DNA of 64,000 nt, taken from Smithella sp. (GTDB taxonomy: Bacteria; Desulfobacterota; Syntrophia; Syntrophales; Smithellaceae). The DNA lies in the NCBI GenBank assembly GCA_017993615.1, contig JAGOMJ010000001.1, positions 25,425 through 89,424 on the forward strand. The letters are read 5' to 3'. The notes under the pieces are model-generated. The model saw only the letters and a list, made by a program, of their open reading frames with translations, was not told where the DNA came from and did not search any database. The position numbers and the translations under genes are program-made. Positions 32,455 to 44,210 of this stretch are shown here, in pieces (positions within the stretch are counted from its first letter, which is position 1; the number at the start of each line of letters is the position of its first letter).

Positions 32455-33300
32455 TTAGATATAGTTGTGCAGGCTGGTTAGAAAATTCACACCCAGATAA
32501 GTAAATAAAACAGACACGAACCCGACAATCGTCATCATGGCCATGCGCCGGCCGCGCCAGCCGCGGACAAAGCGGGCATGCAGCATAATGGCGTAGATAA
32601 GCCACGTGATCAGGGACCATATCTCTTTGGGATCCCAGCTCCAGTATGAGCCCCAGGCATAGTGCGCCCAGACGGAACCGGTGATAATCCCCATGGCCAG
32701 AAAAATAAATCCGAGTGATGTGCTCTGATAGATCAGAACATCCAGTGTGTTCAGCACGGAAGAATTTTCCTTCGGATGAGACGCAGGGTTGGTTTCTCTT
32801 GTTTCTTTTTTTTCCGTCCAGAGATAAAGGAGTCCGCAGCCGAAAGCAACCGTGAAGGCGGCATAACCCATAAAGCAGGTTAAAACATGAGTCGTCAGCC
32901 AGTTGCTTTGCAGCGCGGGAATCAGCGGTTCGATGCTGTGATCGACCCCCGGTGCGATGGAAGCGTAAGCCATGACAAAAAAAGCCACCGGGACGACAAA
33001 CGTGCCGAGAATTCTGCTTTTGATCCGCCACTCAATGGCCAGATAGAGCATTATGATGGACCAGGCGAAGAAAACCAGAGACTCATACAAATTGGTAATC
33101 GGCACGTGTCCGAATCCCAGGTCGTAGGAAGCTCTCCATCGCAACATCATGGCCAGCGTGTGCGCGAAAAGTCCCAGCCACGCCAGCAAGGATGCCGCGT
33201 ATCCCCAGAATTCTTTTTTCAAAATCATTCTGAACAGATAAAAAACAAAGGAAGCAAAATAAATAAACGTCACGTAACTTAAAATCAGCGTGTGGTTCAT
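32455..33300 (-). CDS. ccsA: Cytochrome c biogenesis protein CcsA/ResC (System II)
   Basis: Trp-rich WAHYAWGSYWSWDPKE (WWD-type) motif. ATGA overlap with ccsB. Confidence 0.9.
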   Translation of the reverse strand: MNHTLILSYVTFIYFASFVFYLFRMILKKEFWGYAASLLAWLGLFAHTLAMMLRWRASYDLGFGHVPITNLYESLVFFAWSIIMLYLAIEWRIKSRILGTFVVPVAFFVMAYASIAPGVDHSIEPLIPALQSNWLTTHVLTCFMGYAAFTVAFGCGLLYLWTEKKETRETNPASHPKENSSVLNTLDVLIYQSTSLGFIFLAMGIITGSVWAHYAWGSYWSWDPKEIWSLITWLIYAIMLHARFVRGWRGRRMAMMTIVGFVSVLFTYLGVNFLTSLHNYI

Positions 33301-34634
33301 GCCGCCAGCTCCTTTTCCATCCATGCGCACAAATCATCAAGTCGCCTCTGCAACGCTTCGTTATAACGATGACTGCGCCCGGCCACGCGGATTCTGACGC
33401 CTGCCGGATCCTGTTCCAGCAGAAACCAGATACGCCGATACGCAATGAAAAAGATGACCATCATGCCGGCGATCAGAATCAATCCGCCGGCCAGAACAAA
33501 CGGGACACCCGGATCGCGGACAACCTGTAACCCGGTGTAATATTTTCCTTCAATCCCCCGGAGAGAAAAAACCAGGGGTTTGAAAAGGCCCGGATTAAAA
33601 AGAGGGACGGCGGAAAATAAGCCGGGGTTTACATCCGCGATATCCTGAATATGCTGAAACACCCAGAACTGGATATTTCTCTTGTCCGTTTCAATATTTA
33701 GTTTTACGGCCGGACCGAACTGCATCATATTTTCTTCCACGCGCAAAACGGTGGCCTTTGCCTTCTGAACGGGAAGATCAAACGTGTCTCCCTGTCCTGC
33801 TGAGATTTCCGGGCTCTCCGCTCCGGCGTTGCTGTATGTCAGACGGGCTCTGCTTTTTTCAGAGACACCGTAGCTTGCCTGATAAAAACGCAGGCCGTCA
33901 AACGATAGCGGATGATTGACCAGCACAGAACCCTGACGCACGACCTGTCCATTTTTGATGAAACTTAACTCCGATCGATAGGTTTTTGGGACTCCTGTGT
34001 CATAAAATTCCACAACAAATTTGTCGCATCGAACGGAAAAATCAAGCGGGTGTTCACCCTCGCCATTCCGCAGCTGGATAATGTTTGTTTCTTCGCCTTC
34101 GGAAAGTCTGAGATCCGCCTCAAGACCGAACACTGAGCCGATCACCATGCCCGCAATAATCATCAAAACGCCAAGATGGACAACGTAAACGCCGAACAGG
34201 GATAGGCGCCCCGATTCGCGATAAAGCATTTTCCCCTTTTCCAGCTTTGTTTCTTTAACCGAAAATAGTTTCGATTTGAGAAGAGATTCGACCGCGCGGC
34301 TGACGGTTTCCATCTTTTTATCCGTCACGATTATCCGGTTTGGAGCAAGATTTTCAAACAGCCCGGAAGGTGGCGGGAAAGAGGGCGTCTTGTATTGTTT
34401 TATGGCGAAAGGAATTCGTTGGATGGAGCAAACCATCAGATTCAGTGAGAAAAGCCCCATCAACACATAAAACATTTTGGAATGATAAAGGTCATTGAGC
34501 CAGAGCCATTCGGAATCCATTCTCTGCGGCGGCACCAGCGTGGCCACAATAAAGATCACCACCATGAAAAAAAGCAAAACGATGGCAAGTTTGACGGAAG
34601 CAAGAAAAGACCAGATGAAATTCGCTTTTTTCAA
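33297..34634 (-). CDS. ccsB: Cytochrome c biogenesis protein CcsB/ResB (System II)
   Basis: 445 aa with ResB-like topology: N-terminal TM segments, a large periplasmic loop and a C-terminal TM. Coupled to ccsA. Confidence 0.85.
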   Translation of the reverse strand: MKKANFIWSFLASVKLAIVLLFFMVVIFIVATLVPPQRMDSEWLWLNDLYHSKMFYVLMGLFSLNLMVCSIQRIPFAIKQYKTPSFPPPSGLFENLAPNRIIVTDKKMETVSRAVESLLKSKLFSVKETKLEKGKMLYRESGRLSLFGVYVVHLGVLMIIAGMVIGSVFGLEADLRLSEGEETNIIQLRNGEGEHPLDFSVRCDKFVVEFYDTGVPKTYRSELSFIKNGQVVRQGSVLVNHPLSFDGLRFYQASYGVSEKSRARLTYSNAGAESPEISAGQGDTFDLPVQKAKATVLRVEENMMQFGPAVKLNIETDKRNIQFWVFQHIQDIADVNPGLFSAVPLFNPGLFKPLVFSLRGIEGKYYTGLQVVRDPGVPFVLAGGLILIAGMMVIFFIAYRRIWFLLEQDPAGVRIRVAGRSHRYNEALQRRLDDLCAWMEKELAA

Positions 34635-34825
34635 TGGTTTCTGCCCTTAAAGAAAAGAAAATTTTTCCAGAAAACTTAACATCTAATGTGCTTTCTGTCA
34701 AAGAGTACCTTGCTCAGACAGCCCGGACGAACTTCTTGACAAAACAACCGGTTTACCTTATCGTTTAATTGTCTTTCAGTGTTTTATTGATGTGATTGTC
34801 GCAGCAATTCAACAAGGAAAATGAT

Positions 34826-36091
34826 ATGGCCGATTCCGGCAAAAAGCGGTTCCTCCCACATATCAAATCTGCCTTTGAACGCGTCTTATCCGGTGGATGG
34901 ATTTATCTCTTGTTTGTCGGCCTGTTCGGTATTTTTCTTCTCATAGGAATTGGTGCCGGGATTCATGCGTTGTTTATCGCCGGCAGCCGTCATGCCTACG
35001 CGACATCACGGGAAATTCCCGTTGCCATTCTGATTGCCACGTATGTTTTTTTTGTTGTCGCTTCAACGGGGCTTTGTCTGGTGTCGTCACTGGGACATGT
35101 CTTCGGCGTGGAAAACTTCCTGCCCCTGGCGAAACGTTGTGTTTACCTGGCGATCATTACCATTCTTTCCGGATTCCTGGTGATCGGCCTGGAAATTGAA
35201 AATCCTTTCCGCATGGCGATATACAACGTTATTTCGCCCAACTTCTCTTCCAATATCTGGTGGATGGGAACCCTGTACGGGTTTGCCGTCGTTTTTCTGA
35301 CGATTGAATTCATTCTTCTGTTTAATGAAGCGCACCACCATAAAGCTGTCATTGCCGGTTTCCTCGGCGTCATTACGGAAGTCGCCGCCAACAGCAACCT
35401 GGGCGGTGTTTTCGCGATGATGCATGGGCGCCCTTACTGGTACGGCCCTTATTTCCCCGTTTATTTTATTTTATCCGCCCTTATTACGGGCTGCGCTTTT
35501 ATTCTGTTTTTCTTTTTTCTCGCCCACAAAGCGGTCAACAAAAAACCATTCATGGAATCGACGCAAACCGCTCTGAAAGCCGTATCGAAACTGACGCTGC
35601 TTTTGCTGGCCGTCATGATGATCTTCACCGCGTGGAAGGTTTTGACGACCTCCGTTGGCAGTCCTGCCGCCGCCGCCGCGTTGAGCGTGTTAACTGAAGG
35701 ACCCTATTCATTCAACTTCTGGACCATTGAAATCCTTGTCGGAATGGTCATTCCTTTTGTTTTAATTCTGGCATCAAGAGGCAGGAATCTGACGGTCATG
35801 TTCATCGCCGCCGTCATGATGATTTTCAGCCTTTTCTTCACCCGTCTGGATATGGTGGTTGTCGGACAGATTGTCCCGCAATATTTTGAAGTGGGTGTTG
35901 TGGAATATTCCAAATTGCATACCTATTCTCCGAGCATTCACGAAATCCTTGTGGTGCTGGGAGGGATAAGTTTCTGCCTGCTGGCATTTTTGCTGGGTGA
36001 AAAAGTATTTTCCGGTTTCGCAGATTCACCGCAGACCGACATCATGAAAGAAAAAACAACGGACGTTGCCGGAGTGGAAGAACTGACATGA
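34826..36091 (+). CDS. NrfD/PsrC-family polytopic quinol-interacting membrane subunit
   Basis: About 10 TM segments. 4-nt overlap with the downstream NrfC-like gene. ATG at 34826 is preferred to the TTG at 34796. Confidence 0.8.
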   Translation: MADSGKKRFLPHIKSAFERVLSGGWIYLLFVGLFGIFLLIGIGAGIHALFIAGSRHAYATSREIPVAILIATYVFFVVASTGLCLVSSLGHVFGVENFLPLAKRCVYLAIITILSGFLVIGLEIENPFRMAIYNVISPNFSSNIWWMGTLYGFAVVFLTIEFILLFNEAHHHKAVIAGFLGVITEVAANSNLGGVFAMMHGRPYWYGPYFPVYFILSALITGCAFILFFFFLAHKAVNKKPFMESTQTALKAVSKLTLLLLAVMMIFTAWKVLTTSVGSPAAAAALSVLTEGPYSFNFWTIEILVGMVIPFVLILASRGRNLTVMFIAAVMMIFSLFFTRLDMVVVGQIVPQYFEVGVVEYSKLHTYSPSIHEILVVLGGISFCLLAFLLGEKVFSGFADSPQTDIMKEKTTDVAGVEELT

Positions 36092-36825
36092 CGGATAAGG
36101 CGAGCCATAAAAATATTCCGGAATCTCCGCTTGATGCTGAACGGCGGGCATTTCTGAAAATCGGTCTGAAAATTACCGGCGTGCTCGCCGGCGGCTCAAT
36201 ATTGTCTTTAGTCTCCAACATCAACAAGGCTTATTCTCTTGATCTTTTTCGGGAGAAATACCCTTATAAACCTCATTACGCGATGGTGTTAAGACAGGAC
36301 CGCTGCATTGATTGCGAAAAATGCATGAAAGCCTGTATTGAAACCAATCATGTTCCGGATTACGGCTGGCGGACAAAGATTTTAAAACGCGACCTTTCGT
36401 CGGCGCTTGATCAGAAATGGGAATTTATTCCCATCCTCTGCAATCAATGCAACAATCCTCCGTGCGTGCGCACCTGCCCGACGACGGCGACGTATAAGGA
36501 TAAGACCAACGGCATCGTGCAGATGAACAACAAAAAATGCATCGGGTGCAAATCCTGTATTATGGCCTGCCCCTACGATGCCCGCTATTATAATGAAGAA
36601 AAAGGTGCCATTGATAAATGCGATTTCTGTTTTGAGTCCAGGCTGTCCAAAGGCATTAATACCCCGGCCTGCGTTGAAGCCTGTCCCTCGGATGTCCGTA
36701 TTTTCGGAGATTTGTCGGATCCGTCCAGCAGAGTGTTTCAACTTGTTCACCAGTTGCAAAGACCTGTGTGGGTGCTGCGGCAGGAGATCGGTGCGAAACC
36801 GAATATTTTTTATATGAAGGGTTGA
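36088..36825 (+). CDS. NrfC/HybA-type 4x[4Fe-4S] ferredoxin subunit with Tat signal
   Basis: Twin-arginine ERRAFLKIG. Four Cys clusters: CIDCEKCMKAC, CNQCNNPPCVRTC, CIGCKSCIMAC, CDFC...CVEAC. Confidence 0.88.
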   Translation: MTDKASHKNIPESPLDAERRAFLKIGLKITGVLAGGSILSLVSNINKAYSLDLFREKYPYKPHYAMVLRQDRCIDCEKCMKACIETNHVPDYGWRTKILKRDLSSALDQKWEFIPILCNQCNNPPCVRTCPTTATYKDKTNGIVQMNNKKCIGCKSCIMACPYDARYYNEEKGAIDKCDFCFESRLSKGINTPACVEACPSDVRIFGDLSDPSSRVFQLVHQLQRPVWVLRQEIGAKPNIFYMKG

Positions 36826-36835
36826 TGATTCAGCA

Positions 36836-38647
36836 ATGAAAAGAAATCTTGTTCTTATAATTCTTCTCGCTCTTTTCTGCATCGCCAATGTCGGTTCTAC
36901 CGGAAAAAGCAGTTTTTCCGACGGCGGTGGCATTCTGTATACGCAGCCGGTGAAATCCGTTATTTTCCGCCATCAGCATCATGTGGATGTAAAAAAAATA
37001 AGTTGTGAGAAATGCCACAGCGGCTTGTTTGAAATGCAGGCTTTGCTTGCCCAGGAGAAAAAGGATTTTATTATGGATTCTCTCTACAAGGGCAGGTACT
37101 GCGGCGCGTGTCATAACGGCAAAGACGCTTTTGCATCCGATAAACAGTGCGCCAGATGCCATGTCCGCATCAGCGAAAAAGATGTGGGGCACGTGAAAGG
37201 TAAAGCCAAGCCATACAAAGCGCCTGTTTACAGTACGGTGGCCACTTTGGGAAAAGACCAGCGGAAGGTCCCGTTCAACCACGAAAAGCATGCGTCGCTG
37301 AATTGCATGGATTGTCATTCGAAACTTTTTCAAATCAGAAAAGGATCAACCAAGATTGCCCTGGAAACGCATCAGTCGCAAAAATATTGCTTTAACTGTC
37401 ACAACGGGAAAAAAGAGTTTTCCTGGAACAATTGTACAAAATGCCATCAGAACTGGAAGGATATTAAACCGTACGGTATTCTGACGGCAAGAGCCGACAG
37501 AGGAAGCTGTGTTGCCTGCCACACCAATCCGGATGAAATGAAATCGCTCGTCAAGCCGCCCGAAATAGGCGGCGAGGCCGAGGGGTGAGCTGGCGCTCCT
37601 CCCCCGGTCCGGGCGGAAGAATACTACAAAGGTTATCTGGTCGATAAAGGAATGATCGGCAAGGAGTTCCATCTTTCGATGGATTGCATTGCCTGTCATC
37701 AAGGCAACAAGCTCGCAAAAACAAAGGAGAAAGCTCATCAAGGACGTATCGCCAGACCGTCCGACAATCTTAAAACCTGCGGCATCTGTCATATAACAGC
37801 CGGACAAAATTACGCCAAGGCCCTTCATTATACGAGCCTGGGCCAGCGCGAAGGCGTCAAACACCGGTTTTCTGCGGCAGAATTGAAAACGTTTGATCAG
37901 AAAGTTTTTGAAAAATCATGCCGATCCTGTCACGCTTCCTGCGGAAGCTGCCACGTCAAATCGCCGCCTGTCGGCGGCATCACCACCGGCCTTCTCCAGG
38001 GCCATAAATTTGTGAAGAAAAACGAAGGCAAAACCTGTGCTTCATGTCACGGTGGAAGAGTATATCCCGAATTTACCGGTGAATACGGCGGCACCCCTGA
38101 TGTCCACTACCAGAAGGGCATGATGTGCAATGACTGCCACAACAAACAGGAAATGCACGGCGACGGCAAATTATATAAATCAAAAAATGATGTCAAAGAC
38201 CGCCCGAAATGCCTGTCCTGCCATCAGGATAAAGGCAATCAGGTCGCGCACACCATTCATAAGGATAAAGTCAGCTGTCAGGGCTGCCATTCTTCCGGCC
38301 AATATCGCCAGTGTTATAGCTGTCATGCCGTGCATGGGTCAAAGGCCGAGCCCGGCTTTATCCTGGGGCTGAATCCGCGTGACCGCAAGACCTTGACAAC
38401 CCTCAGGGTCATACCTACTATAAGAAGTACATTTGAGCCTAACGGAATAAAAATGGAGAATTTTGATGCTCTGCCCAATTACTGGAATTCGCCGGTGCAC
38501 AACATTAAAAAGCGAACAAACAGGACACGCTCCTGCGATGCATGCCATGTGAATAAAGAAGGTTTCCTGAAACCTGAAGGGCTGATTAAAGACGGATCTA
38601 AAGAAAATGAGAAACTAATTTATGACATTAAACCAATAAGCAAATAA
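36836..38647 (+). CDS. Candidate selenocysteine-containing 17-haem c-type cytochrome (7-haem N-part including two c7-like trihaem repeats, U251, 10-haem C-part)
   Basis: Track ORFs 36836-37588 and 37652-38647 share one frame and are separated only by the TGA at 37586-37588. There is one Sec signal peptide, at the N-terminus only. 17 CxxCH motifs. A SECIS-like hairpin lies downstream of the TGA. Confidence 0.6.
37599..37616 (+). promoter_or_regulatory. SECIS-like GC-rich hairpin
   Basis: CCC-CGGUCC-GGG with extra flanking pairs. GGUC lies at +21..+24 from the U of UGA, the same spacing as in the Prx gene. Confidence 0.4.
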
Positions 38648-38663
38648 AAACAGGAGGATCTTT

Positions 38664-39590
38664 ATGAAAAGAATGAGGTTTTTGAAAGTGTTGTTGGTAT
38701 CCCTGTTGATTTTACTGCCGGCAGCCGTGCTGGCGCAGGGACTCAGCCCTATTGTTTCGACAGATGATTTAGCCAAAATTGTAAAGGATCCCAACGTCAT
38801 TGTCATTGATATCCGCAAGGTTGAAGATTATAAAGCGGGGCATATTCCCGGCGCGATAGGGGTGTTTTATAATAATTGGGCACCGGGCATGGGCGGCTTA
38901 AAAAATGAAATGCCGGCAGATGATGATTTAATGGACCTTCTTACCGATAACGGCATTCAACCCGACTCAACGGTCGTCGTTTACGGCACTACAGGAACTC
39001 CGCCTGATCGTGTGGATGTGACCCGCGTGGCCTGGGCTTTGAAATACGCAGGCGTCCAGAAGGTATCTGTACTGAGCGGCGGATTTGAGAAATGGGCGGT
39101 GCGCGAGAAAAAAGAAGTTTCTACAGAGATTACCAAGCCCAAGACCAAAGATTACAAAGGTAAAATCAATAAAGCCATTCTGGTTAACAAGGATTACGTG
39201 AAAAATCACGTCGGAAAAGCGATGATCGTTGACGCACGGGAACCGGCATTCTTTAAAGGCGAACAGAAACTTCCTTTCGTGGCCAAAGCCGGTCGAGTCA
39301 AGAATTCGGTCAATCTGCCCACCATTCAGGTTTTCGACAAATATCCCCCCGGCGAGCATATGGAGCCCTGCTGCTGGACATATAAAGATGTCGCCACGCT
39401 CAAAAACATTGCTTCAGGTGTCGTTGGCAGTGACATCGACAAGGAAATCATTGTCTATTGCGACACCGGGAAAGTTGCCAGTGCCTGGTGGTTCATTTTA
39501 AGTGATGTGATGGGTTTCAAAAATGTGAAAATTTATGACGGTTCCATGGAAGAATGGATGAATGATGCAAGCGCTCCGACGGAACCGTAA
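38664..39590 (+). CDS. Exported tandem-rhodanese sulfurtransferase
   Basis: Signal peptide LLPAAVLAQG. Two rhodanese domains. Active-site loop VYCDTGKVAS. Confidence 0.85.
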   Translation: MKRMRFLKVLLVSLLILLPAAVLAQGLSPIVSTDDLAKIVKDPNVIVIDIRKVEDYKAGHIPGAIGVFYNNWAPGMGGLKNEMPADDDLMDLLTDNGIQPDSTVVVYGTTGTPPDRVDVTRVAWALKYAGVQKVSVLSGGFEKWAVREKKEVSTEITKPKTKDYKGKINKAILVNKDYVKNHVGKAMIVDAREPAFFKGEQKLPFVAKAGRVKNSVNLPTIQVFDKYPPGEHMEPCCWTYKDVATLKNIASGVVGSDIDKEIIVYCDTGKVASAWWFILSDVMGFKNVKIYDGSMEEWMNDASAPTEP

Positions 39591-39668: not shown

Positions 39669-40592
39669 CTATTTAGGCGTGACGTTGGCGTCGGCGTTTT
39701 TTGTAATCGGTGCCTGAGGATCCTGCATCCATTCCTGCATGGCGCCATCGTATAGACGGACGTTTTTATAGCCGAGGACTTCCACCAGAATATAAGACCA
39801 GATCGGGCAGCACTGACCGATGTCGCAATAGGTTATAATTTCTTTTTCCTTATCCCTGCCGATAGCGGCTTCGGAAATCGCCGCGAGTTCTTCCGTGGTT
39901 TTAAATGTTTTGTCAGGATTAAAGGCGCAGGAAGTCGGCATGTTAAAAGCTCCCGGGATTCGTCCCATCATGGGAATACAATCCATCTTTTTCTCGCCGG
40001 TAAAGAACTCTCGTTCTCTCACATCCAGCATAATAGCCTTGCCCAGCCGTTCTTTAACGTAATCTTTGTCGGCAAATCTCGCTCTTGAGTAGAGGCCTTT
40101 GAATGGTTTTGCTTTTGCGTGCATGATCTCCTGCGAAAGCGGTTTCTTTTCAGTAATCCATTTATTCATCCCGCCGTTAAGAACGGCTACATTTTTTATT
40201 CCTGCGTATTGCAGGGTGCAGGCGACACGGGCGCTTTGATAACTCAGCCGCGGCGTATCCATGCAACCGGTGACGACAATCCGCGAGTCAAACCCGATTC
40301 CGAAGTAGCCTATGGTATCATCCAGGTCATCCGTTTCGGGGATCTCCGTAAAAAGACCGTCTTTCTGGTATGCCCATGATCTGTAAAACGCGTTTAGCGC
40401 GCCGGGAATGTGTCCCTCTCGGTAATCCTCAACTCGGCGAACATCCAGGATAATCAATTTCGGATTCTTCAAATTTGCCAAAAGCCAGTCGGTGGATACA
40501 ATCGGCTCGATGTCACGGGTTTGACCGGCTATCGGCAATAAAAGGATAAAAAGAAGGATCGTAAGGAGCTTGGACAAAGCATGATTTTTCAT
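39669..40592 (-). CDS. Exported tandem-rhodanese sulfurtransferase (paralogue)
   Basis: Start MKNHALSK with AAGGAG 8 nt upstream. Signal peptide present. Active-site loop TYCDIGQCCP. Confidence 0.85.
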   Translation of the reverse strand: MKNHALSKLLTILLFILLLPIAGQTRDIEPIVSTDWLLANLKNPKLIILDVRRVEDYREGHIPGALNAFYRSWAYQKDGLFTEIPETDDLDDTIGYFGIGFDSRIVVTGCMDTPRLSYQSARVACTLQYAGIKNVAVLNGGMNKWITEKKPLSQEIMHAKAKPFKGLYSRARFADKDYVKERLGKAIMLDVREREFFTGEKKMDCIPMMGRIPGAFNMPTSCAFNPDKTFKTTEELAAISEAAIGRDKEKEIITYCDIGQCCPIWSYILVEVLGYKNVRLYDGAMQEWMQDPQAPITKNADANVTPK

Positions 40593-40725
40593 ATGGCAAT
40601 CTCCTTTGAATGTTGTATTACACATCTTAAAACGGATGTATACATAGTATACCACTAATTCTTTATTGAGACAGCCGAATATTTCAGACCGCAGAATACA
40701 AGCCCTATTTCATACTATTTTTATC

Positions 40726-41271
40726 TTACCGAATATGACGGTCTATTTCCCCCATCAGCGTCTGCGTCTGATCGGGCAACAGCGCGAATCCCATGTCATT
40801 CCTGTAAATGATGTTCATTTTTTTATCGACAATCACATACACGCGTTTGGAAAGGGGCAAAAGCCAGTGGTCGGCGTCGTAGAGCTTGGCGATTTTGCCT
40901 TTTTCATCCACCAGCAGAGTCATGTTTTTCAGGCTGTGCTTGGCTATAAACTTGCGGTGCGATTCGGCCGAATCCCGCGACAGGCCGAGAATTTTGATTT
41001 TTTTGGCTTTGTATTTTTTAATATTTTGTTGAAACTCAACAAACTGGCGGATTCAAAGCTTGGTGTCGTCTTTGGGATAGAAAGCCAGTACCACGGCGCG
41101 ATGATTTTTGACAGCATTGCTGAGTTTCCATATGTTGCCCTTTTGATCGGACAATGTAAAATCAGGGGCTACCTGGCCGGAAACCGGGGAGGCGTTTTTT
41201 GCCCCTGTTGAAGCACAGGCTGACAATATAAAGAACACCAGCACAAAAAAAACGAATTTTGTTATTCGCAT
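40726..41271 (-). CDS. Candidate Sec-containing BCP-like peroxiredoxin lipoprotein (U73 at the peroxidatic position)
   Basis: Track ORFs 41053-41328 and 40726-40923 are in one frame, joined by the TGA at 41053-41055: AFYPKDDTKL-U-IRQFVEF...ILGLSRDS. Lipobox ILSAC. GGAGGG RBS before MRITKF. Confidence 0.65.
41025..41043 (-). promoter_or_regulatory. SECIS-like hairpin
   Basis: RNA UUUGUUGA-GUU-UCAACAAA: perfect 8-bp stem starting at +13 from the U of UGA, with GU in the loop. Confidence 0.45.
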
Positions 41272-41339
41272 ATAGCCCTCCGATAAAGGTATGGACGGCG
41301 GGCGGTTCAAAAATAACCGCCCGCCCATCTTAGTAAAGA

Positions 41340-41951
41340 TTAATCGTCAAACGCCATTTTGGTTTTCCAAACTTCCCAGACCTTGCCTACCAGATCGGGG
41401 CCGGGTTTGAGCGTCGGCTTGCCGGGTTTCCAACCGGAGGGCGTGGCTTCGGCGCCTTTGGTTTTGCGCACGTGTTGGAAGGCCTGAATTTGACGGATGC
41501 TTTCCATGACGTTGCGTCCGACCGGCGGCGTCAACACTTCAAAGCCCTGAATGATGCCATCGGGGTCGATGATGAACCGGCCGCGGGCTTCCACGCCGGC
41601 ATCCTGAAGGTAAACGCCAAAGATGTCTCCGACCTTGCCGCCGCCGTCGGAGAGCATGGGGAAGGGGATGCCGCCTTTGACCATTTTGGAAAGTTCATGA
41701 TCATCCCACATTTTGTGGACAAAGACGCTGTCCACACTCATGGATAAAACTTCAACGCCGAGTTTTTTGAATTCGGGATATTTCTCGCCGACCGACGAGA
41801 TTTCGGTTGCTCAGACGAAGGTGAAGTCGCCCGGATAAAAACACAGGACAACCCATCTCCCCAGATAATCGGAGAGCTTCAGATTGATGAATTTCCCCTT
41901 GTGATACGCGGGCGCCGTGAAGTCCGGCGCTTTTTTCCCTACAGTGACCAT
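41340..41951 (-). CDS. Sec-containing AhpC/Prx1-type peroxiredoxin (U47 replaces the peroxidatic Cys)
   Basis: Track ORFs 41811-42065 and 41340-41741 are in one frame, joined by the TGA at 41811-41813: [23 protein letters not shown] lies before [11 protein letters not shown]. Confidence 0.8.
41783..41800 (-). promoter_or_regulatory. SECIS-like hairpin
   Basis: RNA UCUCGUC-GGUC-GGCGAGA: 7-bp stem and GGUC tetraloop at +21..+24, resembling the fdhF apical loop. Confidence 0.6.
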
Positions 41952-42085
41952 GCTTTTGACCTCCTTGACAGGTGTTGGTTGAGACGTTTCTTTCTTCGCA
42001 TCCGGTTTTTCGCCGACCGGTCCGCCGGTGGGTCTGGCACAGCCGGCCTTGATTTCTTCAGCCATAGATGATTCCCTCCTTTGTT

Positions 42086-42400
42086 TTATTTTTTTGATTT
42101 CTTCATTTTCGCGATTTCTTCCTCCACTTCCTCAGCGCCTTCCGCATAGAATTTTCCTTCATCGGGGGCCAGTTCATGAAGCAATCTTAAAAACTCTCCG
42201 GCGTGAACGCGTTCCTCGTCGGCAATGTCCCCGAGGACCTCGATGGCCAGCTTGTTGTCGGTTGATTCCGCGAGCTGCATATAAAGTTGGATGGCTTCAT
42301 ATTCTGCCGCCACCATAAAGCGAATGGCTCTGATCAGTTCTTCTTTGGTCAGTTTCCTGTCCTTCTTCAACCCTGAAAAAGGTGTTCCAAACTCCGGCAT
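42086..42400 (-). CDS. Small ferritin-like/rubrerythrin-family protein (EncFtn-like sequence, no encapsulin nearby)
   Basis: [10 protein letters not shown] ... [11 protein letters not shown] di-iron-type ExxH pattern. 20 nt upstream of the Prx gene. Confidence 0.65.
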
Positions 42401-42509: not shown

Positions 42510-44210
42510 TTACTTCTCCCTCGGGAACGGCCAAGCCATAATGCCGCCTTCCATCACTTTGACGTTTTTCCAGCCGTTGCCTTCCAGTGCCAGCGCCGCC
42601 TCATAACCGCGCAGTGAAATCTTGCAGTATAAGATGATTTCGCGATTTTTATCCTCCGGCAGCTCCTTGAGGCGCTTACGGATCGCGCCGAGCGGTATCA
42701 ACGTCTCACCGATGCCTAAACGCATCTCTTCGAATTCCTCCGGTCCGCGTGTATCAATCAGGAATGGTTTCTCTCCGGCCCGTATTTTATCATAAACCTC
42801 TTTACAACTGATACCTTTCATTCTGCCTTTCATTTTATTCTGCATGATGTGCGCCGTGGCGATAAAATGATCAATGGCCAGAGAGAAGGGCGGCGCGTAG
42901 GGAAGATCGGCGTTAATCAGGTCTTCCACGGTCATTTTCCCCTGAATGGCCATGGCCCACTGGGCAATTTGCTTGGCGACGTTTCCCGGACCGATGCATT
43001 GTGCGCCGAGGATACGGCCGGTTTTTTGCTCCGCCACCAGTTTAGTGACCAGAAGCTTGCCTTCCATAAAGCCCGGTTTGTCGGGACTGGCGTTGATGAC
43101 CGTTATGATGTCGGAATAGCCCAGGCGTTTGGCCATTGTTTCCGAAAGGCCGGTGGAGCCCGCCCCGTAATCGAACACTTTGCAGATGCCGGTTTGAATC
43201 GTTCCCGGGAAAGTGACGCTGTTGCCGGAAGCGGCGTTTTCTCCCGCTATTCTTCCCTGGAGATTGGCCAGATCGCCGTAAGGCGCGTGGACTTTTTTGC
43301 CGGTGATGCGGTTGAGGGTTTCCACGCAGTCGCCCACGGCGTAAATGTCCGGGTCGGAGGTCTGCATGTATTCATTGACTTCAACGCCGCCAAGCTCGCC
43401 GATTTTCAACCCGGCTTCTTTGGCCAGTGTGACGTTGGGACGGACACCGATGGCTATAACGGCCAGCTCGCAGGGAAGCTCCGTTCCGTTTTGCAGTTTC
43501 ACCGCTGTGAGTTTTCCGTTTTCACCCAGGAAAGCGGCTATGCCGTTTTCGGTGATGATGTTGGCGCCTTTGCTCCGCACATGGTTTTCCACCAGCTTGG
43601 CCAGTTCCCAGTCCAAAAACGTCAGCAGTTGAGGAAGCAGTTCAATGACGGTGATTTCAATACCCGCCAGTTGCAGCGCTTCGCAGGTTTCGATACCGAT
43701 GAGTCCGCCGCCGATGACCACGGCCTTTTTGATTTTGCCTTCATCGCGGACGTTACGCAGAAAATCGGCGTCCTTCATGGATTGTAATGTGGTAATGCCC
43801 TGGAGATCTGTGCCCGGAACCGGCGGCATTCGGGGAACGGCGCCGGTGGCGATAACGAGTTTGTCATACGTCAGGGTGCCGGTTTCTCCGGAAACCGTAT
43901 TTTTGAAGGAAACGGAACGGTTTTTCGTGTCGATGTTAGTGACTTCGGTGTTGACCTTCGCTTCGATATCTTTGGCGTTGAGGTAAAACATCGGATTGCG
44001 CACGACGCCCGCGGGCGTGCAAAGTAGCGCGTTGCGGTCGTTAAAAAAACCTCCGACGTAATACGGGTAGCCGCAGGACGCCATGGAAAGGTCGGCTTCC
44101 TTCTGGATAATGATCACTTCCGCGTCGTTGTCAATGCGCCGGGCTTTCGCCGCTGCTTTGGGACCGGCAGCCGAACCTCCGATAACAATGATTCGTTTTC
44201 TCTGAGCCAT
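42510..44210 (-). CDS. CoA-disulfide reductase / NADH-dependent persulfide reductase-like flavoprotein with C-terminal rhodanese domain
   Basis: GGSAAG FAD site, redox Cys in SMASCGYPYY, second Rossmann motif VVIGGGLIG, C-terminal rhodanese loop LYCKISLRG. Confidence 0.85.
   Translation of the reverse strand: MAQRKRIIVIGGSAAGPKAAAKARRIDNDAEVIIIQKEADLSMASCGYPYYVGGFFNDRNALLCTPAGVVRNPMFYLNAKDIEAKVNTEVTNIDTKNRSVSFKNTVSGETGTLTYDKLVIATGAVPRMPPVPGTDLQGITTLQSMKDADFLRNVRDEGKIKKAVVIGGGLIGIETCEALQLAGIEITVIELLPQLLTFLDWELAKLVENHVRSKGANIITENGIAAFLGENGKLTAVKLQNGTELPCELAVIAIGVRPNVTLAKEAGLKIGELGGVEVNEYMQTSDPDIYAVGDCVETLNRITGKKVHAPYGDLANLQGRIAGENAASGNSVTFPGTIQTGICKVFDYGAGSTGLSETMAKRLGYSDIITVINASPDKPGFMEGKLLVTKLVAEQKTGRILGAQCIGPGNVAKQIAQWAMAIQGKMTVEDLINADLPYAPPFSLAIDHFIATAHIMQNKMKGRMKGISCKEVYDKIRAGEKPFLIDTRGPEEFEEMRLGIGETLIPLGAIRKRLKELPEDKNREIILYCKISLRGYEAALALEGNGWKNVKVMEGGIMAWPFPREK

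Follow-up and report, generated by a model that had tools for sequence, protein, structure and literature searches.

Multihaem cytochromes that contain selenocysteine (Sec, U) were first shown biochemically in 2026 with MccSep (ExtKL, GSU2937-2936) of Geobacter sulfurreducens, a pentahaem Sec enzyme that reduces polysulfide and, less well, selenite (Sci Adv 2026, PMC13510729). Its gene cluster also encodes the rhodanese ExtH, larger multihaem cytochromes, and a module that oxidises quinol (PMC13510729, PMC5877670). Among cytochrome-related families, a 2026 review of prokaryotic selenoproteins names only ExtKL, the GSU2204 family, and the octahaem tetrathionate reductase (OTR) family TIGR04315, which has Sec-containing members (PMC13188914). 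Here, we analyse a gene at positions 36836-38647 of a 64,000-nucleotide (nt) stretch of a Smithella sp. contig (hereafter, the window). The gene contains an in-frame UGA and would encode a 17-haem cytochrome c. It apparently belongs to a second family of Sec-containing multihaem cytochromes, which is unrelated to MccSep, unannotated, and widespread, being found in most sampled Syntrophales species and in distant lineages. Full-text searching of the literature found no description of an 11-haem Sec cytochrome family.

The window protein resembles MccSep in several respects. Both are periplasmic multihaem cytochromes c whose annotation is split at an in-frame UGA, both belong to families that vary between Sec and Cys, and both genes have a hairpin resembling a selenocysteine insertion sequence (SECIS) within 30 nt of the UGA. 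The Sec of MccSep lies on a mobile loop. The two gene clusters are also alike in logic, though unrelated, each combining a rhodanese with a quinol-oxidising membrane module. However, the conserved core of the window protein has 11 haems (17 in the whole protein) rather than five. Its proposed Sec is N-terminal, between haems 1 and 2, in the motif GEG-U-AGAPPPV, whereas that of MccSep is in a C-terminal immunoglobulin-like domain, in the motif DG-U-P. A strictly conserved non-motif Cys, which in MccSep serves the His/Cys-ligated active-site haem, is missing in 83 aligned cores, and the membrane module is of the NrfCD type instead of Rieske/cytochrome b. Membership of MccSep/ExtKL was rejected: neither the window protein nor its relatives P0010 and P0130 matched NF040886 at E <= 0.001.

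Other described systems are more remote. OTR is likewise a multihaem cytochrome and acts on sulfur compounds, but differs in haem number and Sec position. This family was also rejected, as no TIGR04315 match was found, and a Foldseek comparison with OTR (PDB 1sp3) gave E = 0.19 and a template modelling (TM) score of 0.37. OTR was the best hit in that search, in which the AlphaFold model of P0010 (a relative with Trp in place of U) found nothing significant in a PDB copy that may predate the MccSep structure. In a PDB sequence search, the 11-haem core gave only marginal local matches, to octahaem nitrite reductases (E ~3e-3), and no NCBIfam model reached its cut-off on this core. The DmsE, ExtM, ExtN, and HmcA families were rejected as absent or far below their NCBIfam cut-offs. 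The operon follows the logic of NrfABCD and MccABCD, in which a multihaem terminal enzyme accompanies a 4x[4Fe-4S] protein exported by twin-arginine translocation (Tat) and an NrfD-family membrane protein. In contrast to NrfA and MccA, to which it is not homologous, the cytochrome would use Sec and has an obligatory-looking rhodanese partner.

Gene architecture and conservation of the in-frame UGA

The UGA at 37586-37588 is very probably recoded as Sec, a conclusion that the comparison with relatives strongly supports. The fuller explanation, that this is one gene for an exported Sec cytochrome with a fused 11-haem core, encoded in a reductase operon, is likely. The features of the proposed gene are as follows.

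36836..38647 (+): proposed single gene for a 603-residue, 17-haem periplasmic cytochrome c with U at residue 251, from the frame, the motifs, and the TGA that 79 of 80 relatives share at this codon
36836..36907 (+): signal peptide of the Sec (secretory) type (MKRNLVLIILLALFCIANVGSTGK..), read from the translation; the segment is kept in L001-L015
36941..37450 (+): N-terminal module, two trihaem domains of the c7 type that hold haems 1-6 and follow the "nanowire" pattern of GSU1996 (PDB 3ov0, TIGR04257); often a separate gene in relatives
37508..37522 (+): CVACH, haem 7 of the protein and haem 1 of the conserved 11-haem core; a CxxCH lies between signal peptide and UGA in 65 short-form relatives
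37586..37588 (+): in-frame UGA, proposed Sec codon (U251; U27 in core numbering), from the TGA of relatives and the Cys in the aligned column of distant representatives
37589..38644 (+): C-terminal 352 residues with haems 8-17 (core haems 2-11), called alone by gene callers as "cytochrome c3 family protein"

An earlier note on this DNA had proposed that one UGA joins two open reading frames (ORFs) into an exported candidate Sec cytochrome. The conserved TGA, the peptide around it, the hairpin, and the Cys of distant relatives all bear this out. As the note had described, the ORF at 36836-37588 (250 amino acids, ending with the TGA) and the ORF at 37652-38647 (from ATG 37652 to TAA 38645-38647) share one frame, the 21 codons between them are open, and the TGA is the sole break. 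The read-through product has 603 amino acids and 7 + 10 = 17 CxxCH motifs. The downstream call begins MIGKEF..., lacks a signal peptide, and has a single purine tract, AAAGGA, which touches its ATG; here too the note was right.

The same codon is TGA throughout the close relatives. Our locus set comprised 80 loci, one per GTDB species, all from metagenome-assembled genomes of Smithella, Syntrophaceae, or Syntrophales, with 58-89% identity. TGA occupies the exact homologous codon in 79 of them; L060 alone has CGA. Since the codon is identical in 79 of 80 species-level relatives, chance coincidence can be regarded as excluded for the in-frame TGA. The surrounding peptide, ...GEG-[TGA]-AGAPPPV(K/R)AEE.YKGY, is kept on both sides, amino-acid conservation of the codons flanking the TGA is among the highest in the region, and no conserved start codon follows. 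The Gly codon just 5' of the UGA (window 37583-37585) is GGG in 74 of the 80 relatives, with a third-position entropy of 0.5 bit. This bias suggests that, besides the hairpin, the 5' context of the recoded stop may also be constrained.

Existing annotation cuts the family at this site. A protein search with the read-through sequence returned 549 relatives, and we inspected the 120 best matches. All of these 120 cover the C-terminal part only (~345 amino acids), and their called starts are scattered within the stretch after the TGA (MPPPVKAEEYY..., MKAEDYYKGY..., MYKGYVVD..., MDKDLIGK...). A few relatives of 407-420 amino acids run continuously through the site; these have their own signal peptide, one CxxCH, and the same peptide, as in P0010 (...CITCHTDAEKLKSLVKPPEIGGEGEG-W-AGAPPPVKAEEYY). 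The earlier note had held that its proposal would fall if homologues of the N-terminal part consistently ended here and those of the C-terminal part carried signal peptides of their own. In the relatives, called C-terminal parts lack one, and proteins with a sense codon at the site are continuous. Pipelines thus systematically truncate the family to a signal-less "cytochrome c3 family protein", and re-annotation alters the predicted respiratory inventory of Smithella and Syntrophus-type syntrophs, organisms that dominate methanogenic digesters and hydrocarbon-degrading consortia.

Decoding of the UGA would be site-specific, because TGA ends NrfD and NrfC directly upstream. A reassigned genetic code was rejected for the same reason: TGA is the ordinary stop of NrfD, NrfC, and ResB in the window, and it also ends the relatives' own cytochrome genes in eight cases.

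The upstream frame occurs in two forms. The long form (the window and L001-L015) has 250-255 amino acids and seven haems. The short form (the other 65 of the 80 loci) has ~55 amino acids, made up of a signal peptide and one CxxCH, and makes as little sense alone as the signal-less part downstream. Because the upstream frame of these 65 loci holds only a signal peptide and one CxxCH, the conserved unit is an 11-haem core that runs across the UGA: one CxxCH, a Gly/Glu/Pro-rich loop bearing U, and ten more CxxCH. The UGA lies between haems 1 and 2 of this unit, so the earlier note's placement of Sec in a linker between two multihaem modules does not stand. The real module boundary is ~25-45 residues further upstream, after the two c7-type trihaem domains (residues 36-205). 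These domains match GSU1996 (PDB 3ov0; E = 1.8e-36 over residues 39-205 in a PDB sequence search) and TIGR04257 (132.1 bits in two stretches; cut-off 40). The likeness to the GSU1996 c7 polymer is confined to this fused N-terminal module, which itself has no Sec.

Most relatives are 11-haem proteins, and the 17-haem form is thus a lineage-specific fusion of a c7-type hexahaem module to the N-terminus of the 11-haem core. In eight short-form loci (L016, L031, L036, L037, L052, L054, L059, and L070), a separate set of NrfD, NrfC, and c7-type cytochrome genes lies 2-6 kb away; in a further one (L076), NrfD and NrfC were seen nearby, without a c7 gene. In the long-form loci L001-L015, NrfD and NrfC are immediately upstream and the c7 module is joined to the core. 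The fusion would thus unite two partners of one electron-transfer chain and mark their functional partnership. In one distant relative (L091, 451-2328), the UGA follows a one-haem segment to which a CarboxypepD_reg-like domain is fused; this is a second, independent N-terminal fusion to the same core.

The SECIS-like hairpin and the Sec/Cys column of distant relatives

A short GC-rich hairpin follows the UGA. Offsets are counted with the U of the UGA as +1.

37600..37617 (+): SECIS-like hairpin UCCCCC-GGUCC-GGG(C)GGA at +15..+32, loop GGUCC at 37606-37610

GGUC lies at +21..+24 in its apical loop. The earlier note had seen the same spacing in a neighbouring peroxiredoxin gene, and the offsets proved identical at the TGA of that gene (41811-41813, minus strand). 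In the 80 aligned Sec-type sequences, the stem is formed by U15-A32, C16-G31, C17-G30, G18-C29, C19-G28, and C20-G27 and closes a six-base loop, N-G-U-N-N-N, at +21..+26, in which G22 and U23 are invariant. The clade of the window has C18, with an alternative register in which C29 is bulged and the loop is GGUCC. Bacterial SECIS elements, by the criteria of bSECISearch and Escherichia coli fdhF, have an apical loop ~16-37 nt from the UGA and a G, usually GU, in the loop. The hairpin agrees with these criteria in its stem (+15..+32), its loop (+21..+26), and the GU within it.

Across 76 distinct sequences, 91.7% of stem cells are paired, and two of the pairs show compensatory changes (U-A in L032; G-C in L055 and L056). 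As the stem lies in conserved codons, synonymous sites are a sharper test than pairing. Fourfold sites beyond the stem (Ala+1, Gly+2, Ala+3, and Gly+15) have a third-position entropy of 1.4-2.0 bits, compared with 0-0.3 bits at sites in the stem. Within the stem, Pro+4 is CCT in 77 of the 80 sequences, codon +8 ends in G in all 80 (CGG, AAG, AGG, ACG, or TCG), codon +9 ends in G in 79, and Glu+10 is GAA in 70.

The hairpin fades in several relatives without Sec: L060 (Arg) has a weakened stem, L082 (Tyr, TAC) a decayed one, and L084 (Cys, TGT) none. L081 (6001-7251, homologue P0014), which has Ser (TCA, one substitution from TGA), keeps the hairpin intact. Either this homologue lost Sec very recently or its assembly contains a base-call error.

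Distant relatives carry the same arrangement. We chose three (L089-L091, with 31-39% identity to P0010) for database entries that start MP.LE.WEKV... without a signal peptide. In every one of them, the homologous site is an in-frame TGA (...QGEC-U-SGALPLLEEWEKV in L089, ...EEGGDG-U-GGDVPELEAWEKV in L090, and ...KGGC-U-GGEVPESPAHEKV in L091). One CxxCH lies upstream of it, after a signal peptide or a different domain. Their hairpins are unrelated in sequence and lie in the same place; the loops of L089 and L091 have GU at +21/+22, and that of L090, at ~+23..+27, has none. Across the family, the structure of the hairpin is thus conserved while its sequence turns over.

In a wider alignment of representatives at 50% identity, found with P0010, the column aligned to U holds Cys in 14 distant representatives (~28-39% identity), in motifs such as GEGCGG, ESCGG, and GECCGG. 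Trp occupies the column in ~6 representatives; relatives with Trp include P0010, P0093, P0132, P0147, and P0154. His, Met, Tyr, Ala, Ser, Gly, Leu, and Glu also occur, as does Arg in L060. A further ~26-30 representatives begin just after the site and are presumably Sec forms cut by gene callers, as were all three that were tested. The family thus shows the usual alternation of Sec and Cys. The natural series at this one site (Sec, Cys-Sec, Cys, Cys-Cys, Trp, and others) offers a probe of what selenium contributes to haem-based chalcogen chemistry.

Some distant members have a vicinal Cys beside U (GEC-U-SG, GGC-U-GG), and some Cys forms have CC. The earlier note's statement that the site is not a redox motif therefore holds for the clade of the window only. 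Mammalian thioredoxin reductase has a C-terminal Gly-Cys-Sec-Gly arm, which places a selenolate on a flexible, Gly-rich segment near a fixed redox centre. The sites of these distant members (GGC-U-GG, GEC-U-SG) resemble that arm by analogy only: thioredoxin reductase is an unrelated flavoprotein rather than a cytochrome, and the clade of the window has no vicinal Cys.

Operon context, proposed function, and alternative explanations

The cytochrome gene is the third of four in a putative operon, and further genes of sulfur and cytochrome metabolism flank it.

34796..36091 (+): NrfD-type integral membrane subunit, putatively quinol-interacting (PF03916, 77.8 bits; cut-off 25.8)
36088..36825 (+): NrfC/DsrO/TtrB-like 4x[4Fe-4S] ferredoxin with a twin-arginine leader (ERRAFLK) and stop TGA (Fer4_11, E = 2.5e-25)
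38664..39590 (+): periplasmic tandem-domain rhodanese with a signal peptide and the active-site loop CDTGKVAS, last gene of the operon (PF00581, E = 4.5e-35, two domains)
39669..40655 (-): second periplasmic tandem rhodanese, convergent with the operon (PF00581, E = 5.9e-33)
32455..34634 (-): System II cytochrome c biogenesis genes, CcsB and ResB-like, divergent from the operon (TIGR03144 CcsB, 275.6 bits; cut-off 187.6)

The first two genes make up an NrfCD-type quinol dehydrogenase module, with an NrfD-family membrane protein and a Tat-exported 4x[4Fe-4S] protein in the same operon. The stop TGA of NrfD overlaps the start of the NrfC-like gene as ATGA. The NrfC-like subunit scores 89 bits with PF13247, above the cut-off, and 176-185 bits with the NCBIfam models NrfC, TtrB, and DsrO; all three scores are under the equivalog cut-offs, which leaves its specific subtype undefined. 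GGAGG precedes the rhodanese gene at 38664-39590.

A rhodanese gene adjoins the cytochrome in ~68 of the 80 loci and in two of the four distant Cys-type relatives that we examined, in the orders ArsR - cytochrome - cytochrome b - rhodanese (L085) and MarR - cytochrome - tandem rhodanese (L087). Orthologues of the second rhodanese occur close to the locus in L001, L003-L005, and L007; in L040, L041, L053, L058, and L076 they immediately precede the cytochrome. In the Sec-type loci L044, L052, and L059, the cytochrome is separated from NrfD by ~2.6 kb (+1.1 to +3.7 kb, counted from the UGA) that matches neither rhodanese of the window. The CcsB/ResB pair is syntenic in L001-L008, L010, and L013.

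Terminal periplasmic reductases such as NrfABCD and MccABCD likewise pair a multihaem cytochrome with an NrfCD-type module, and rhodaneses carry sulfane sulfur as persulfides. From this layout, the chemistry of rhodaneses, and the precedent of MccSep, we infer a path from quinol to sulfane sulfur. Electrons would leave menaquinol through NrfD/NrfC and reach the 11-haem core by way of the c7 module. From its flexible loop, the selenolate would attack the sulfane sulfur of polysulfide or of the partner rhodanese's persulfide; the haems would then reduce the Se-S adduct, with release as sulfide. In the AlphaFold model of P0010, which has no Sec (overall predicted local distance difference test score, pLDDT, 80.5), pLDDT falls below 50 at residues 50-61, the loop GGEGEG-W-AGAPP, and this low confidence is consistent with a flexible loop at the U site. 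We tentatively propose, at somewhat short of an even chance, that the complex acts as a molybdenum-free, quinol-fed, rhodanese-assisted periplasmic reductase of sulfur or polysulfide, and possibly of selenite. If so, these syntrophs can pass electrons from the quinone pool to sulfane sulfur in the periplasm by a route that depends on selenium and needs no molybdenum. Such an alternative electron sink would bear on cryptic sulfur cycling and on the selenium demand of anaerobic digesters.

Several observations weigh against reading this locus as a Sec-dependent sulfur reductase. The substrate is inferred from gene neighbourhood only, and Syntrophales are not known to respire sulfur. Close non-Sec relatives (56-58% mutual identity) have Trp, Ser, Arg, Tyr, or Ala at the site and not Cys, which is unusual for a catalytic Sec; the number of lineages in which U seems to be replaced by a residue incapable of thiol chemistry is itself unusual. 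The earlier note had asked whether homologues are continuous with Sec or Cys aligned. They are in part, with TGA in 79 of 80 loci and Cys in 14 distant representatives, but not in these close non-Sec relatives. The two replacements whose contexts we examined, Ser in L081 and Tyr in L082, are in different, multi-cytochrome gene clusters. The neighbours of L081 are large MtrC-like cytochromes, not a rhodanese. Outside CxxCH, the 83 aligned core sequences have no conserved Cys; the Syntrophales clade thus has no conserved partner Cys, and the MccSep mechanism is not simply transferable. Single-sequence folding energy is ordinary (z = +0.55 for 71 nt and -0.36 for 40 nt), so the significance of the hairpin comes from comparison with relatives only. 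Rfam gave no SECIS family in the whole window at the gathering threshold or around the site at E <= 10, a negative that is uninformative because the same scan also missed the two clear peroxiredoxin-type Sec sites nearby. ARAGORN found no tRNA gene, including tRNA-Sec, in the 64-kb window, and an NCBIfam scan found no sel gene among ten large window ORFs, which include a histidine kinase, sigma-54 regulators, RsmB, PriA, and DnaJ.

A more specific version of the reductase reading is that the selenolate of U251 is an axial ligand of a c-type haem. This would create a natural His/Sec haem that serves as a redox-switchable catalytic centre and to which the rhodanese would pass sulfane sulfur. His/Cys haems are known in TsdA, DsrJ, and SoxAX, and a His/Sec haem would be the selenium counterpart of these and of the His/Cys haem of MccSep. 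Besides its 11 CxxCH, the core conserves only nine His outside these motifs (core H55, H77, H107, H166, H200, H217, H248, H251, and H331), which leaves two haems with a non-His or vacant distal position. That two core haems lack a conserved distal His fits such a ligand, as do the ligand-competent Cys, His, Met, and Tyr at the U column in other clades and a U-site loop that is unresolved in the haem-free AlphaFold model. Trp, Ala, Ser, Arg, Gly, Leu, and Glu at the same column argue against it, and we regard the idea as quite doubtful.

Sec might instead be real in a protein that is an electron-transfer cytochrome, for example for extracellular or interspecies transfer in syntrophs, and not a reductase of sulfur compounds. 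Sec would then be non-catalytic, either as a haem ligand that tunes redox potential or as a selenium-dependent translational checkpoint. The closest Pfam and NCBIfam resemblances, all weak, are to the MtrC/MtrF domain, DmsE, ExtM, and ExtN; the N-terminal module is of the "nanowire" c7 type; and non-Sec relatives in multi-cytochrome clusters tolerate Trp, Ser, Arg, Tyr, and Ala. However, the adjacent rhodanese is near-universal and reaches distant Cys-type members, the NrfCD module is typical of terminal reductases, and retention of Sec over deep divergence, with Cys in its place in other clades, is the usual signature of a redox-active residue. We consider a purely electron-transferring role fairly unlikely.

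Selenium-free programmed read-through, in which a near-cognate tRNA (Trp) reads the UGA and a short and a long product are made, has far less to recommend it. Five relatives do have Trp at the site (P0010, P0093, P0132, P0147, and P0154), and TGG is one substitution from TGA. Read-through of this kind is very improbable given a hairpin at the canonical SECIS distance with a GU loop and synonymous constraint, which recurs with unrelated sequence in distant clades. Moreover, Cys forms exist, the terminated product of the short form would be a 55-residue fragment of no evident use, and clear Sec genes are next door.

A genuine stop between two genes, one for a cytochrome with seven haems and another for a 10-haem protein that begins at 37652, is scarcely credible. 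It agrees with gene callers and NCBI, which annotate the C-terminal part alone as "cytochrome c3 family protein", and with the ATG at 37652 and its adjacent AAAGGA. Yet conservation at the protein level begins immediately after the TGA and covers the 21 codons ahead of that ATG, called starts vary between relatives, ten CxxCH need export that a C-terminal part without a signal peptide would not receive, and relatives with a sense codon are continuous. A sequencing or assembly error, or a pseudogene, for which nothing specific speaks beyond the origin of the data in metagenome-type assemblies, can be dismissed, as the same TGA recurs in 79 independent species-level assemblies and three distant metagenome contigs with frames intact on both sides.

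Neighbouring candidate selenoproteins

Two peroxiredoxin-type genes with an in-frame UGA lie within 4 kb of the proposed Sec cytochrome gene.

41340-42065 (-): 2-Cys peroxiredoxin with UGA at the peroxidatic Cys (FTFV-U-ATEI), TGA 41811-41813, hairpin GGUC at +21..+24
40726-41328 (-): BCP-like/Prx-like thiol:disulfide oxidoreductase, TGA 41053-41055, with UGA at the PxxxTxxC position (FYPKDDTKL-U-IRQ)

Each of their hairpins has a G at +21. Both families are among the 19 selenoproteins, including SelD, reported for the related Syntrophus aciditrophicus (PMC1794560). The Sec competence of the organism, inferred from these neighbouring UGA genes and from its lineage, is thus well supported indirectly.

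Gene callers would split the 2-Cys peroxiredoxin gene into ORFs of 84 and 133 amino acids. The BCP-like gene brings the candidate selenoprotein genes within 5 kb to three. Its leader (..FFILSAC..) resembles that of a lipoprotein, and its hairpin is AU-rich, with GUU in the loop at +21..+23. Further along, at 42510-44210 (-), a CoA-disulfide-reductase-like flavoprotein (TIGR03385, 365 bits; under the cut-off, 578.8) is fused to a rhodanese domain at its C-terminus. This family has Sec members (PMC13188914), and the window copy is a Cys form. A small ORF at 42086-42400 is putatively ferritin-like. Together with the two Prx genes, the flavoprotein-rhodanese and the ferritin-like ORF form a thiol/persulfide-stress cluster beside the cytochrome operon.

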